Shown piece after piece: positions 469 through 63,495 of a stretch of DNA of 64,000 bases. Made by a program: the position numbers and the translations under genes. The stretch is taken from contig NC_092617.1 of NCBI RefSeq assembly GCF_047663525.1, positions 5,575,550 through 5,639,549 of the forward strand, given 5' to 3'. The DNA comes from Anas platyrhynchos. Taxonomy: Eukaryota. Under the pieces are notes generated by a model that did no database searches, was not told the origin of the DNA, and saw nothing but the letters and a program-made list of their open reading frames with translations. How positions within the stretch are numbered: the first letter of the stretch is position 1; each line of letters begins with the position of its first letter.

Positions 469-642
469 CCAATGGCGTTGCGTCCGCCTCTTCGTGTCGT
501 CGACCTTCCTGGATCTGGGGGCCGAGCGGGACGCCCTGGTGCGGGCGGCGCTGCCCCGGTTGCGGGCCCTGGCGGCCCCCCGGGGGTTGGGGGTCCAAGA
601 GGTCGACCTGCGCTGGGGGGTGGCCGCCCCCGACCCCCAGAG
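469..642 (+). CDS. NWD1: NWD1-like exon with the N-terminal DUF4062-like motif (..SQWRCVRLFVSSTFLDLGAERDALVRAALPRLRALAAPRGLGVQEVDLRWGVAAPDPQ). This is an internal exon and it has no start codon, so the upstream exon or exons lie outside the window
   Basis: Acceptor ctctcccag|CC at 467-468 and donor AG|GTCAGC at 643. The hhhSSTFxDhxxERDxL...VDLRWGV signature is typical of the NWD N-terminus. The exon ends in phase 2. Confidence 0.65.
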
Positions 643-722
643 GTCAGCCCAGGGGTCAAAAATGGGGTGGGGGGTGAGGGGGGTGGTGGGCACCCATGGG
701 TGCTCACCCCCCCACCCCGCAG

Positions 723-822
723 GAGGCAGGAGCTGTGCCTGGAGGAGGTGGCGCGCAGCGACGTGCTACTGGGAGTACTGGGGGAGCGCTACGGCCAGCG
801 GGGCGCCGGCGCGCCCCCCGCG
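723..822 (+). CDS. NWD1: NWD1-like exon (RRQELCLEEVARSDVLLGVLGERYGQRGAGAPPA)
   Basis: An 80-bp intron separates it from the previous exon. Acceptor ccaccccgcag|G and donor GCG|GTGAGA. It continues the frame of the previous exon (AG+G=Arg). The LGERYG motif is conserved in NWD proteins. Confidence 0.55.
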
Positions 823-842
823 GTGAGAGCCCCCCCTCGGGG

Positions 843-1590
843 GCACCCTTGGGTGCTCTTTGTCACCCCATTGGGTCCCCATTGACCCCATTGGGTCCCC
901 ATTGTCCCCATTATGTCCCCATTGGGTCCCCATTGACCCCATTGGGTCCCCAATGTCCCCATTGTCCCCATTATGTCCCCATTGGGTCCCCATTGACCCC
1001 ATTGGGTCCCCAATGTCCCCATTGTCCCCATTATGTCCCCATTGGGTCCCCATTGACCCCATTGGGTCCCCATTGTCCCCCTTGGGTCCCCAATGTCCCC
1101 ATTGACCCCATTGACCCCATTATGTCCCCATTGTCCCCATTATGTCCCCATTGTCCCCATTATGCCCCCATTGTCCCCATTGGGTCCCCATTGACCCCGT
1201 TGACCCCATTATGTCCCCATTGGGTCCCCATTGACCCCATTGTCCCCACTGGGTCCCCATTGACCCCATTATGTCCCCATTATGTCCCCATTATGTCCCC
1301 ATTATGTCCCCATTGTCCCCATTGGGTCCCCATTATGTCCCCATTGACCCCATTGACCCCATTGGGTCCCCATTGACCCCATTGACCCCATCAGGTCCCC
1401 ATTGTCCCCATTATGCCCCCATTGTCCCCATTATGTCCCCATTGACCCCATTGACTCCCCATTGTCCCCATTGTCCCCATTATGTCCCCATTGATCCCAT
1501 CAGGTCCCCATTACCCCCCCATTGCCTCCCCATTGCCCCCATTGCCCCCACCGACCCCAATTTCCCCCGATTTCTCCCCAATTCCCCTCT
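843..1590. repeat. C-rich microsatellite (CCCCATTGDS / CCCCATTATGT)n with units of 8-11 bp
   Basis: Direct reading. It fills the intron between the exons at 723 and 1595. Confidence 0.9.
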
Positions 1591-1594
1591 CCAG

Positions 1595-1713
1595 GGCCTG
1601 CCCCCCGGGCGCTCGGTGACGGAGCTGGAGCTGCGCACCTTCCTGCAGCGCTGGAGCCCCGCCCACGGCCCCGCCCCCGCCCTCATTTACATGCGAGACC
1701 CCGCCTTCCTCCG
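1595..1713 (+). CDS. NWD1: NWD1-like exon (GLPPGRSVTELELRTFLQRWSPAHGPAPALIYMRDPAFL-)
   Basis: Acceptor ttcccctctccag|GGC and donor CG|GTAGGG. RSVTE(L/M)E...ALIY(M/F)RDP.FL resembles mammalian NWD1. Phase 0 in and phase 2 out. Confidence 0.65.
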
Positions 1714-60620: not shown

Positions 60621-62400
60621 GTGAGGACGACTTTTTGGGGGAAAAGGGGACGATTTGGGGTCTTTGGGGTCATCTTTGGGGTCTTTTGGGACTTTGGGGA
60701 CATCTTTGGGGTCTTTGGGGTCAACTTTGGGGTCTTTGGGATCAACACTGGGGTCTTTGGGGTCATCTTTGGGGTCATTGGGGACACTTTTGGGGTCTTC
60801 AGGGTCAACATTGGGGTCTTTGGGGTCTTTGGGGCCATCATCGGGGTCTTTGGGGTCTTTGGGGACACTTTTGGGGTCATTTGGGACAATTTGGGGGTCT
60901 TTGGGGTCATCTTTTGGGTCATTGGGGTCAACTTTGGGGTCTTTGGGGTCATCTTTGGGCTCTTTAGGGTCATCTTTGGGGTCTTTGGGGTCATTGGGGT
61001 CAACATTGGGGTCTTTGGGGTCTTTGGGGTCATCTTTGGGGTCTTTGGGGTCATCGTTGGGGTCTTTGGGGTCATTGGGGACACCTTTGGAGTCTTTGGG
61101 GTCAACTTTGGGGTCTTTGGGGTCTTTGGGGTCTTTGGGGTCAACATTGGGGTCTTTGGGGTCATCTTTGGGGTCTTTGGGGACACTTTTGGGGTCATTT
61201 GGGACAATTTTGGGGTCATTGGGGTCAACATTGGGGTCATTGGGGTCAACATTGGGGTCATTGGGGTCATCCTTGGGGTCTTTGGGGTCACTTTGGGGAC
61301 ATTGGGGTCTTTGGGGTCATTTTTGGGGTCTTTGGGGTCTTTGGGGTCATCATCGGGGTCTTTGGGGTCATTGGGGTCATGGGGGCCACTGTTGGCTTTT
61401 TGGGGTCTTTTGGGTCTGTTGGGTCTGTTTTGGGGTCTTTGGGGTCATTGGGGTCACTTTGGGGTCACGGGGTCACCTTGGGGTCATTGGGGTCACTGTG
61501 GGTTCATTGGGGTCACCTTGGGGTCACGGGGTCACCTTAGGGTCACGGGGTCACTTTGGGGTCATTGGGGTCACTTTGGGGTCACAGGGTCATTGGGGAC
61601 ATCTTTGGGGTCTTTTGGGTCTGTTTTGGGTTCTTTGGGGTCAAGGGGGTCACCTTGGGATCATGGGGTCACTGTGGGGTCACGGGGTCACCTTGGGGTC
61701 ATTGGGGTCACCTTGGGGTCTTTTGGGTCCCTTTTGGGGTCTTTGGGGTCTATGGGGTCACGGGGTCATTGGGGACATCTTTGGGGTCTTTTGGGTCTGT
61801 TTTGGGTTCTTTGGGGTCAAGGGGGTCACTTTGGGGTCACGGGGTCACTGTGGGGTCACGGGGTCACCTTGGGGTCACGGGGTCACCTTGGGGTCATTGG
61901 GGTCATCTTGGGGTCATTGGGGTCACCTTGGGGTCATGGGGTCATTGGGGTTTTTTGGGTCTGTTTTGGGTTCTTTGGGGTCCATGGGGTCACCTTGGGG
62001 TCAAGGGGTCACTGTGGGGTCACGGGGTCACCTTGGGGTCATTGGGGTCACCTTGGGGTCATGGGGTCATTGGGGTTTTTTGGGTCTGTTTTGGGTTCTT
62101 TGGGGTCCATGGGGTCACCTTGGGGTCAAGGGGTCACTGTGGGGTCACGGGGTCACCTTGGGGTCATTGGGGTCACCTTGGGGTCACGGGGTCACCTTTG
62201 GGGTCACCTTGGGGTCATGGGGTCATTGGGGTTTTTTGGGTCTGTTTTGGGTTCTTTGGGGTCAAGGGGGTCACCTTGGGGTCACGGGGGTCACTGTGGG
62301 GTCACGGGGTCATCATTGAGGTCACGGGGTCACTTTGGGGTCATTGGGGTCACCTTGGGGTCATTGGGGTCACCGTGGGGTCACGGGGCCACCTTTACCC
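60621..62400. repeat. (GGGGTCTTTGGGGTCATC)n then (GGGGTCACCTTGGGGTCACGGGGTCA)n. Both are G/T-rich
   Basis: Direct reading. Confidence 0.9.
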
Positions 62401-62517
62401 TTTCGGGCTCATTTTGGGGTGGGGCCATTTTGGGCCTCCCCGGACGCATTTCGGGGGGGACGATGACATCATCGATGACGTCACCGATGACGTCATCACC
62501 GGGGGGGGCGGGGCCAG

Positions 62518-62622
62518 GTGTCGCGGTGGGCGGTGACGGCCTTGGGGACAACGGGCGGGGCCTTGGTGACGACGGCGCGGGACGGGCTGGCCCGGATCTG
62601 GGACCCCAGGGGCGGGGCTCCG
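62518..62622 (+). CDS. NWD1: NWD1-like WD40 exon (VSRWAVTALGTTGGALVTTARDGLARIWDPRGGAP)
   Basis: The acceptor ggcggggccag|G lies 20 bp after three GATGACGTCA units. Donor CCG|GTGAGG. Canonical WD blade. Confidence 0.6.
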
Positions 62623-62639
62623 GTGAGGGGGGCGTGGCC

Positions 62640-63235
62640 TAAAAAAGGGGGCGTGGCCTAAAAGGGGGCGGGGCTTAAGTGGGTGGGGTCCAAGGGGGCG
62701 GGGCTTAAGGGGGTGGGGTCAAAGGGGGCGGGGTTTGGGGGCATGGGGGTGAATGGGAGGGGAAAGGGGGCGGGGCTTAAGGGGGTGGGGCTTAAGGGGG
62801 CGGGGCTAAAGGGGGTGGGGCTTAAGGGGGTGGGGCTTAAGGGGGTGGGGTCCAAGGGGGTGGGGCTTAAAGGGGTGGGGTCCGAGGGGGCGGGGCTTAA
62901 GGGGAGGGGCGGGGCCTGGGGGGTCTATGGGGGGGATTTGGGGGGGATTTGGGGGGGGATTTTGGGGGATTTGGGGGGATTTTGGGGGATTTTGGGGGGG
63001 TTTGGGGGGATTTTGGGGGATTTGGGGGGGAATTTTGGGGGATTTGGGGGGATTTTGGGGGGGTTTGGGGGGATTTTGGGGGGATTTGGGGAGATTTTGG
63101 GGGATTTGGGGGATTTTGGGGGATTTGTGGGAATTTTTGGGGATTTTGGGGGGGATTTTGGGGGATTTGGGGGGATTTTGGGGGAGATTTTGGGGCATTT
63201 GGGGGGATTTGGGGAATCCAAGGGGGCGGGGCTTG
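62640..63235. repeat. (GGGGGCGGGGCTTAAGGGGGTGGGGC)n then (GGGGGATTTTGGGGGATTTGG)n
   Basis: Direct reading. Confidence 0.9.
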
Positions 63236-63336
63236 GGGAGGAGGTGGGCGGGCCTTAAAGGGTAAATAGCATATAATTTGCATGTGATTTGCATATAATT
63301 TGCATATAATTAGCTAAGCCCCGCCCCTTTTTGCAG

Positions 63337-63495
63337 CTCTCCTATTACCGCTGCCCCGGGCCAATCACCTGCCTCGCCCTGGGGCCCCGCCCCCCCCCAG
63401 GCTCCGCCCCCCGGCTGGCGGTGGGCGACCAATTGGGGGGGGTGCACTGCCTGCGCTGGGTCAAGCCCACCCCCCGGGACACGCCCCCTTTTTAG
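63337..63495 (+). CDS. NWD1: NWD1-like terminal WD40 exon with a TAG stop at 63493-63495 (LSYYRCPGPITCLALGPRPPPGSAPRLAVGDQLGGVHCLRWVKPTPRDTPPF*)
   Basis: Acceptor cccctttttgcag|C with phase 0. There is no good donor before the in-frame TAG. A (GGAAGCCACGCCCCCTTTTT)n array follows. Confidence 0.5.
   Translation, partial: LSYYRCPGPITCLALGPRPPPGSAPRLAVGDQLGGVHCLRWVKPTPRDTPPF

Follow-up and report, generated by a model that had tools for sequence, protein, structure and literature searches.

Short exons among satellite-filled introns at a probable TEP1 locus of the mallard

The 64-kb window considered here, that is, the whole stretch of 64,000 nucleotides from Anas platyrhynchos that was analysed (contig NC_092617.1, positions 5,575,550 to 5,639,549), very probably holds the 3' two thirds of mallard TEP1 (telomerase protein component 1), from DUF4062 to the stop codon, as a succession of exons amid satellite introns. 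TEP1 is the TROVE/NACHT/WD40 subunit of vault and telomerase particles. Tandem arrays, called with Tandem Repeats Finder (TRF) over the whole window, constitute 89.1% of it and leave about 55 unmasked stretches of at least 30 bp, merging to 37 island regions mostly 30-450 bp in size. On the + strand the islands carry open frames with protein motifs (e.g., FVSSTFLDLGAERDAL, LRLVLVVDDAG and many WD-like blades). The basic description given by the initial annotation, one gene present as small unique islands amid satellite arrays, is borne out by the TRF coverage together with the single open reading frame (ORF) of 5,532 nt into which the islands assemble. No other genes were found within the window, and an Rfam scan of it gave no RNA family at gathering threshold.

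The final TEP1 model comprises 38 exons (68-394 bp) and 37 GT-AG introns, all phases consistent, with an ORF uninterrupted over 1,843 codons of the + strand; the exons have a GC content of 0.76, and of 0.89 at third codon positions (GC3). A first protein search had led to bird proteins named 'telomerase protein component 1(-like)' and a second one to the mallard RefSeq protein XP_071885836.1 (1,556 aa). The latter is tiled exactly by the window, with 31 exons and 30 junctions having a single canonical GT-AG solution each, and the window is therefore the mallard locus itself, already annotated. Six exons (14900-15029, 16287-16431, 20971-21068, 22116-22201, 26260-26374 and 27348-27472) were added by comparison with P0004, a protein of the ruddy duck, and by looking for GT-AG exons under phase constraint. 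Two of them (exons 11 and 12) match this ruddy duck TEP1, and the six put 17466-17632, 17708-17796 and 19292-19406 back into the conserved frame, resulting in a 37-exon model with an ORF of 5,370 nt. Alignment to eight non-avian TEP1s then revealed one WD blade to be missing, identified as 35120-35281 (acceptor CTCCTCTAG, donor GTGAGT), which RefSeq isoform X1 includes independently of this model; an island at 36242-36300, considered for the same role, was rejected for lack of a WD-like frame. All exons of the model align to TEP1 orthologues, exons 16 and 17 weakly. They are listed below; where no support is named, it consists of RefSeq tiling, GT-AG boundaries and TEP1 alignment.

371-642, +, exon 1, DUF4062 start; exact RefSeq tiling (XP_071885836.1)
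723-822, +, exon 2
1595-1713, +, exon 3
3073-3189, +, exon 4, donor GTGACG belongs to first TGACGTCA unit; RefSeq tiling, TEP1 alignment
8538-8640, +, exon 5
8728-8889, +, exon 6, Walker A GEPGDGRT (Arg for P-loop Lys); RefSeq tiling, GT-AG
11269-11495, +, exon 7
11908-12049, +, exon 8, Walker B LRLVLVVDDAG; RefSeq tiling, GT-AG
13100-13270, +, exon 9
13353-13445, +, exon 10
14900-15029, +, exon 11, in no RefSeq isoform; ruddy duck TEP1 match, unique phase-compatible GT-AG solution, TEP1 alignment
16287-16431, +, exon 12, in no RefSeq isoform; ruddy duck match, GT-AG and phase, TEP1 alignment
17466-17632, +, exon 13, out of frame in RefSeq, in frame given exons 11 and 12; RefSeq exon, ruddy duck match
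17708-17796, +, exon 14, frame restored; RefSeq exon, TEP1 alignment
19292-19406, +, exon 15, frame restored; RefSeq exon, TEP1 alignment
20971-21068, +, exon 16, tentative, alternative donor at 21029; only canonical phase 1-to-0 exon of its island, weak TEP1 similarity
22116-22201, +, exon 17, tentative; canonical and phase-compatible, weak TEP1 similarity
26260-26374, +, exon 18, first clear WD blade, not in RefSeq isoforms; GT-AG and phase, TEP1 alignment
27348-27472, +, exon 19, WD blade, not in RefSeq isoforms; GT-AG and phase, TEP1 alignment
34956-35052, +, exon 20
35120-35281, +, exon 21, WD blade, in RefSeq isoform X1 and not X3; homology
36967-37209, +, exon 22
38407-38800, +, exon 23, 394 bp, middle ~260 bp an in-frame TGACGTCA-type 21-bp repeat (DDVI...); RefSeq tiling
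40627-40845, +, exon 24
42483-42640, +, exon 25
43716-43817, +, exon 26
45087-45194, +, exon 27
48380-48503, +, exon 28
48595-48662, +, exon 29, smallest (68 bp)
51664-51790, +, exon 30
53162-53301, +, exon 31
54595-54707, +, exon 32
56449-56622, +, exon 33, 3' part repeat-derived (GKFGKFGKF...); RefSeq tiling
58063-58324, +, exon 34, in-frame TGACGTCA-type repeat (DDVIDDIIDEV...); RefSeq tiling
59553-59658, +, exon 35
60526-60620, +, exon 36
62518-62622, +, exon 37
63337-63495, +, exon 38, stop codon 63493-63495, end of Beta-prop_TEP1_C match; RefSeq tiling, Pfam

The exon size range is exactly that first proposed. The 35 phase-consistent exons of the initial annotation hold up as regards phase, not number, and the phase gap it had left at 19.4-26.3 kb is closed by exons 16 and 17, kept as tentative due to their weak conservation. 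A word-indexed homologue search with the middle of the model as query gave no match at E <= 1e-10, hence neither support for exons 16-19 nor evidence bearing on the DDVI repeats, probably due to GC-rich low-complexity words swamping the candidate list. That such a locus is difficult to assemble and annotate was rightly pointed out by the initial annotation and is well illustrated by RefSeq itself, which represents it as seven isoforms X1-X7 (XP_071885834-40), X1 only being named 'telomerase protein component 1-like' and the other six 'uncharacterized protein'. All seven skip exons 11, 12 and 16-19 (region 13446-34955) and read exons 13-15 out of frame, giving 124 junk residues; XP_071885836.1 shares the defect between 13.4 and 35 kb.

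Identity of the gene is revealed by domain families and orthologues alike. In the Pfam search, done with the 37-exon model, two TEP1-specific propeller families score above threshold, Beta-prop_TEP1_2nd (PF25047) with 125.1 bits vs. a cut-off of 89 and Beta-prop_TEP1_C (PF25048) with 54.9 bits vs. 32. DUF4062 (PF13271; 47.2 bits vs. a gathering cut-off of 24.7) is found at residues 39-138, preceding the nucleoside triphosphatase (NTPase) region, and WD40 reaches 76.4 bits vs. 27. The NTPase region aligns with the NACHT of TEP1 orthologues; AAA_16 stays under its cut-off (26.5 vs. 32.6 bits). An exhaustive HMMER profile search, using an alignment of bird N-terminal regions as query, gave as best non-avian matches proteins of 2,500-2,860 aa, matched from about residue 850-1000 with 290-360 bits. 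Those from opossum, Elgaria, caecilian, Bombina and electric ray are named telomerase protein component 1, those from Podarcis and Terrapene (turtle) telomerase associated protein 1; one tuatara match is labelled 'NACHT domain-containing protein', and every other named vertebrate match looked up is TEP1. The model is colinear with residues 904-2610 of the 2614 in Elgaria (lizard) TEP1 (E = 4.5e-120). Some 880 N-terminal TEP1 residues (TEP1 repeats, TROVE and vWA-like part) are without counterpart in the window, which is thus understood as the gene's 3' two thirds. The TROVE half would be located upstream, in the direction in which orthologue models of cuckoo and potoo run into TEP1 vWA-like sequence.

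The initial annotation had proposed an NWD1-like gene, which would make it a stand-alone DUF4062-NACHT-WD40 paralogue of the NWD1/NWD2 kind that starts in the window. NWD1 has P-loop NTPase and WD40, probably after a DUF4062, in the order also seen in the duck, and the RefSeq models do start inside the window, at ATG 371. This identity is hardly credible, however, and was rejected on account of the TEP1 propeller families, of best matches that are TEP1-named, of TEP1 length and entered only from about residue 850-1000, and of an alignment colinear to at most 4 residues from the TEP1 C-terminus; the upstream continuation of the cuckoo and potoo models speaks against it as well. NWD1 was not among the 20 matches looked up by name (of 150 listed). 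The duck protein shows no NWD-specific signal, and TEP1 families and orthologues match it better by >100 bits in the profile search. As to ATG 371, it sits inside a 10-bp repeat, and the true start is probably elsewhere: strong acceptor-like AGs precede DUF4062 at 467-468 (for an exon from 469, the start given initially) and at 411-412, and one of the two is probably the 5' edge of exon 1. What remains of the proposal is therefore the class, DUF4062/P-loop NTPase/WD40, and not the family.

At the other end of the gene, a 21-bp array (GGAAGCCACGCCCCCTTTTT) lies directly 3' of the stop codon (window 63496-64000), and the 505 bp between the stop codon and position 64000 contain neither AATAAA nor ATTAAA. 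The 3' untranslated region either crosses the tandem array or extends past the window end.

The P-loop is encoded by exon 6 (GEPGDGRT) and the Walker B motif by exon 8 (LRLVLVVDDAG), in both cases where the initial annotation had placed them. TEP1 from duck, ptarmigan, cuckoo and potoo has arginine instead of the Walker A lysine (GR[TS]), compared to GKT in eight non-avian TEP1s, and the Walker B DGAD of other TEP1s has become DDAx in birds. Common to four bird orders, the Lys-to-Arg change must be old and tolerated. The motif changes suggest that the NTPase activity of avian TEP1 may have been lost or changed.

Between the exons, 31 of the 37 introns are long (412-7,483 bp) and 96.6% TRF-covered. 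Their arrays set on at a median of 5 bp past the donor and end at a median of 14 bp before the acceptor, so the unique sequence left at each splice site is about 5-40 bp; merely 2,310 of 57,593 intronic bases are outside TRF arrays. Arrays reaching to within a few bp of the exons, and the virtual absence of unique intronic sequence, had both been correctly recognized at the outset. The further claim that every intron is a satellite of its own applies to array filling in the 31 long introns; it fails for the six short ones (67-91 bp; I1, I5, I9, I13, I20 and I28), which have no long array (I9, I20 and I28 hold merely 2-16 copies of 4- or 12-bp units), and it fails for the separateness of the families, which are shared among introns. 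The arrays and introns are these:

22-420, arrays 5' of exon 1, 10-bp GGGATCTGAT and a 22-bp unit, end of the intron toward the upstream TEP1 exons
643-722, +, intron 1, short (80 bp), no array
823-1594, +, intron 2, CCCCATTG-type 20/60-bp array, TRF coverage 0.93
1714-3072, +, intron 3, 41-bp GGGGGCGTGGCCACC array, motif common only to ptarmigan intron 3
3190-8537, +, intron 4, six 20-bp TGACGTCA units at donor, then ~260 copies of CCCATTGGGTCCCCCAAGAC
8641-8727, +, intron 5, short (87 bp), two TGACGTCA
8890-11268, +, intron 6, 41-bp TATATGGGCAAAGGGGAGGGGCTT array (349-bp higher order), motif common only to ptarmigan intron 6
11496-11907, +, intron 7, 21/62-bp GCCCCGCCCCC array
12050-13099, +, intron 8, 21-bp GGGTGGGCGGGGCC array, inverted relative of the intron 7 family
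13271-13352, +, intron 9, short (82 bp), two GATGACGTCATC units at acceptor
13446-14899, +, intron 10, C-rich TTCCCCAAAT and GCCCCGCCCC arrays (390-bp higher order)
15030-16286, +, intron 11, AT-rich (GC 0.35), CCATATATGG-containing 70/162-bp repeats, TRF 0.60, least repetitive long intron
16432-17465, +, intron 12, TTTCCCCAAA-type arrays
17633-17707, +, intron 13, short (75 bp), no array
17797-19291, +, intron 14, GGGGAAATTT-type arrays, inverted orientation of the I10/I12 family
19407-20970, +, intron 15, TATGGGGCG-type 10/11-bp arrays
21069-22115, +, intron 16, 18-bp GCTATGGGGCAGG array
22202-26259, +, intron 17, C-rich 57/150/207-bp CCCCAAAATCCCCCGAATTCA array, TRF coverage 1.00
26375-27347, +, intron 18, ACTGGGAGG and ATACTGGTCC arrays, family also in intron 21
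27473-34955, +, intron 19, longest (7,483 bp), ~680 copies of 11-bp TGGGGCACTTA
35053-35119, +, intron 20, short (67 bp), three GATGACGTCA units
35282-36966, +, intron 21, GGGGGGGACT and ACTGGGAGG/TACTGGTCC arrays
37210-38406, +, intron 22, AAATTTGGGG-type arrays
38801-40626, +, intron 23, GGGGGGATTT (10 bp) and 41-bp GGAATTTGGGG arrays, one TGACGTCA at 40572
40846-42482, +, intron 24, TGGGGGGATT and ATGGGGCTCT arrays
42641-43715, +, intron 25, TATGGGGTGGT (11 bp) and 108-bp arrays
43818-45086, +, intron 26, CTATGGGGC-type 68/249-bp arrays
45195-48379, +, intron 27, 305-bp higher-order TGGGGCTGGGATCTATGGGGCAGGG array
48504-48594, +, intron 28, short (91 bp), (TAAT)n
48663-51663, +, intron 29, AT-rich TAATTAATTAAGGGGG arrays and 11-bp unit TTTTCGTCCAA
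51791-53161, +, intron 30, 31-bp ATTATGGGATTATGGGG array
53302-54594, +, intron 31, 20-bp ATAATCCCATTATTGACCCC array, inverted relative of the intron 30 family
54708-56448, +, intron 32, AAAATCCCAC (10 bp) array, GC skew -0.95
56623-58062, +, intron 33, GGGGGATTTTGGGGGAATTT array
58325-59552, +, intron 34, GATTTTGGGG (10 bp) array
59659-60525, +, intron 35, 83-bp array
60621-62517, +, intron 36, TTTGGGGTC-type 176-bp array, three CGATGACGTCAT units 20 bp before acceptor
62623-63336, +, intron 37, GGGGCGGGGC and GGGGGGATTT arrays

The basic period is near a multiple of 10-10.5 bp (10, 11, 20, 21, 41...) in 82% of the repeat bases, and 11-mers recur within their own intron to an extent of 46-98% in most long introns, with three showing a fraction of 0.22-0.33. 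Sharing of 11-mers reduces the arrays to a few families, of GGGGAATTT-, TATGGGGC-, GGGGCGGGGCC-, CCCATTGGG-, ACTGGGAGG/TACTGGTCC- and TAATTAAGGGG-type, several of which are present in both orientations (I10/I12 vs. I14 and neighbours; I29 vs. I30/I31, in 37-exon numbering). Inversions had been proposed initially and are partly supported by the 11-mer sharing; that the introns all carry different families is not. Of the 31 long introns, 22 have a G-rich and 9 a C-rich sense strand, and G-quadruplex-type motifs number 549 on the sense strand vs. 226 on the antisense strand. Composition varies along the gene: introns at 48.5-56.4 kb (48504-56448) are AT-rich (GC 0.37-0.41), with TAATTAAGGGG and AAAATCCCAC units, and upstream introns have a GC content of 0.6-0.7. 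Promoter-element-like sequences are common in the repeat units (GGGGCGGGGC, 37+53; CCATATATGG, 36+36; CCAAT/ATTGG, 112+227).

Repeat blocks leave 35 of the 38 exons untouched. Three RefSeq-annotated exons contain repeat-derived in-frame insertions, absent from other vertebrate TEP1s, that read DDVI about 12 times in exon 23 (38455-38715), GKFGKFGKF in exon 33 (56575-56622) and DDVIDDIIDEV... in exon 34 (58130-58230). They are either exonised intronic repeats, with a 21-bp unit corresponding to 7 codons, or introns without recognisable splice sites. The repeats of exons 23 and 34 involve TGACGTCA, which is the core of the perfect 12-bp palindrome GATGACGTCATC and corresponds to the CRE/ATF consensus. 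TGACGTCA occurs 31 times in the window compared to 0.04 expected, often as the 12-bp GATGACGTCATC; it makes up much of the short introns 5, 9 and 20 and gives rise to in-frame DDV(I/T) repeats in the two exons. Its occurrences form nine clusters, all at most 100 bp from an exon edge or inside model exons:

3191-3295, 8646-8695, 13326-13345, 27407, 35075-35106, 38463-38707, 40572, 58144-58223 and 62476-62495, TGACGTCA clusters

At the splice sites proper, most acceptors have a short tract of unique pyrimidine sequence in front of them (median pyrimidine fraction 0.71). Decoy sites in the 37 introns were scored with a crude position weight matrix of our own against mononucleotide shuffles. Strong decoy donors number 45 vs. 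301 +/- 14 in the shuffles (~6.7-fold fewer), decoy acceptors 32 vs. 102 +/- 9 (~3.2-fold fewer), and no array has a decoy site in every unit.

The same exon-island layout is found at the orthologous loci of the cuckoo (L001; 1.0-Mb chromosome record, TRF 80%) and the rock ptarmigan (L002; 0.84-Mb record, TRF 89%). Orthologous introns mostly have different motifs across the three birds. Intron 3 of the duck (1714-3072) shows a 10-mer containment of 0.20 in ptarmigan intron 3 only, with off-diagonal values of ~0, and intron 6 (8890-11268) one of 0.18 in ptarmigan intron 6, with ~0 in the other ptarmigan introns; the ptarmigan counterparts are L002 19219-20995 and 26024-29169. For duck intron 6, a containment of 0.13 is seen in the I4-7 region of the cuckoo as well. 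To judge by such sharing, some of the arrays seem to be older than the split between waterfowl and landfowl and may have been maintained in place. In the ptarmigan, L002 17189-32145 and 39579-54458 are two tandem copies of the exon 2-10 block with similar intron satellites, the result of either true segmental duplication or faulty assembly; the ptarmigan locus also contains 500 N.

Based on the collective evidence, the locus is understood as part of GC-rich, tandem-repeat-saturated euchromatin of the kind described for avian dot chromosomes. The arrays would have arisen by local repeat expansion and contraction ('sequence stuttering'), with replication slippage, gene conversion or unequal exchange as the source in a region of high recombination, an origin adopted here from the literature. 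Purifying selection on the protein would have kept exons and splice sites, along with the sequence immediately flanking them. The scarcity of competing splice sites could explain why the arrays are tolerated: being largely splice-silent, they would let short canonical GT-AG exons still be recognised, and repeat units with splice-like sites would be selected against. A unit that is in frame, such as one of 21 bp, may enter the coding sequence.

A functional role of the arrays, by which G-quadruplex- and transcription-factor-motif-rich repeats and TGACGTCA palindromes would regulate splicing, transcription or recombination, is compatible with TEP1 exons embedded in stuttering introns, and is considered quite unlikely. 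It could draw on the exon-proximal excess of TGACGTCA, the G-rich sense strands with their excess of G-quadruplex motifs, the depletion of decoy sites, the wealth of GC-box-like, CArG-like and CCAAT motifs, and the satellites of introns 3 and 6 that ptarmigan has at the same positions. Against this, TGACGTCA is rarer at the loci of the two other birds, ptarmigan having 7 sites and cuckoo 2, and all of these except one ptarmigan site are ~0.7-3.8 kb from the nearest mapped exon; the exon association being thus largely absent there, a conserved function is unlikely. Most orthologous introns differ in motif among the three birds, and the extensive length variation of such introns within chicken (Hron et al., PMC12954441) argues against tight constraint. 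No relevant account of tandem TGACGTCA arrays in introns of birds was found in a literature search. It is a rather doubtful proposition that the locus goes beyond published stuttering in having a functional exon-adjacent GATGACGTCATC element (for exon marking, splicing or recombination, and as a route of repeats into coding sequence) along with old intron-specific satellites.

Several observations weigh against the interpretation as an intact TEP1 gene shaped by stuttering. NACHT (PF05729), with 16.8 bits under a cut-off of 26.7, is the one of the three domains initially proposed that stays below its threshold, and the duck Walker A is without the canonical GxxxxGK[ST] lysine. Inclusion of exons 11, 12 and 16-19 in the transcript is inferred, exons 16 and 17 are weakly conserved versus TEP1s, and the repeat stretch of exon 23 could possibly be spliced out. 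The RefSeq protein is on a 6.33-Mb record, to be considered as regards a dot-chromosome location. A BLASTN screen for exon stuttering after Hron et al., with a 42.1-bit threshold, gave only two weak proximal exon-intron pairs among 4 hits in total (E16/I16, 49.1 bits; E23/I23, 48.2 bits; 37-exon numbering), the other hits being due to exonic repeat families with matches in distant introns. The satellites in common with ptarmigan fit old maintained arrays better than a purely recent expansion, and the decoy-site control keeps mononucleotide composition only.

Some of these points would also suit a decaying pseudogene or an assembly artefact, with repeats collapsed or expanded around exon fragments. 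Every RefSeq isoform is defective mid-gene, the NTPase motif is altered and its domain score low, three exons hold repeat-derived insertions, and the ptarmigan assembly has the duplicated exon 2-10 block and 500 N. Such an explanation is nonetheless judged very unlikely. The 5.5-kb ORF is intact across 38 exons and 37 canonical introns without a frame break, each exon aligns to TEP1 orthologues, the lysine replacement is shared by four bird orders, and the exon-island layout is repeated in independent cuckoo and ptarmigan assemblies; chicken introns of this type were, furthermore, verified by raw nanopore reads (Hron et al., PMC12954441).

The initial annotation was thus partly supported, its observation confirmed with numerical corrections and its interpretation right on class and architecture, wrong on the family. 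Its presentation of the architecture as a novelty was overstated. The same architecture has been published for chicken dot-chromosome genes as 'sequence stuttering' (Hron et al., Genome Biol Evol 2026, PMC12954441), with some instances in other birds and the effect on annotation stressed, and the current study consequently adds an instance, not a new principle. Neither TEP1 nor NWD1 is mentioned in the available portions of its text and supplements, nor TEP1 in the mallard near-telomere-to-telomere paper or the zebra finch dot-chromosome study. Annotation and phenomenon both pre-exist, and the added value is the corrected gene model together with the side observations. The 38-exon model provides a usable duck TEP1 C-terminal sequence and exposes the bird-wide P-loop change, and the locus is a concrete case of satellite-filled introns breaking automated annotation, as well as a clean, fully resolved example of a large conserved gene kept intact despite near-total minisatellite introns. 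Decoy-site depletion, exon-adjacent palindromes and ptarmigan-shared satellites are testable leads on splicing and array age.

Viewed as a protein, the duck gene product resembles vertebrate TEP1 in having DUF4062, an NTPase region that aligns with NACHT, a helical region, an estimated ~20 WD repeats and the TEP1-specific propellers in order, and in being colinear over the C-terminal 1,710 residues of lizard TEP1; it differs in its extreme GC3 (0.89), in Walker A (GRT for GKT) and Walker B (DDAG for DGAD), and in ~150 residues of repeat-derived insertions. Viewed as a locus, it shares with chicken stuttering (PMC12954441) the short GC-rich exons, introns made from one or a few imperfect expanded motifs of tens of bp, mostly intact coding exons, absence of interspersed repeats and poor gene models. 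Distinct from chicken, exon-derived copies in the adjacent intron are nearly absent in the duck, in-frame units are present in three annotated exons whereas no chicken block was seen to cross into exons, and two intron-specific satellites are common to a galliform whereas the chicken expansions are described as independent and recent. Dot-chromosome introns of the zebra finch are reported to be >70% tandem repeat by sequence, the unit lengths being multiples of 10-11 bp and the coding strand enriched in G-quadruplex motifs (bioRxiv 10.1101/2025.10.17.683159), and the duck introns agree in all three respects. The finch represents another lineage, and the duck has 9 of 31 long introns C-rich and inverted copies of the same families. 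Introns of Drosophila Y-linked giant genes are megabase-sized and heterochromatic and belong to testis-specific genes, whereas those of duck TEP1 measure 0.4-7.5 kb and interrupt a vertebrate-conserved gene in GC-rich, gene-dense euchromatin. Common to both systems are small exons set among introns of simple satellite arrays through which transcription must pass (reviewed by Fingerhut and Yamashita 2022, as cited in PMC12954441).

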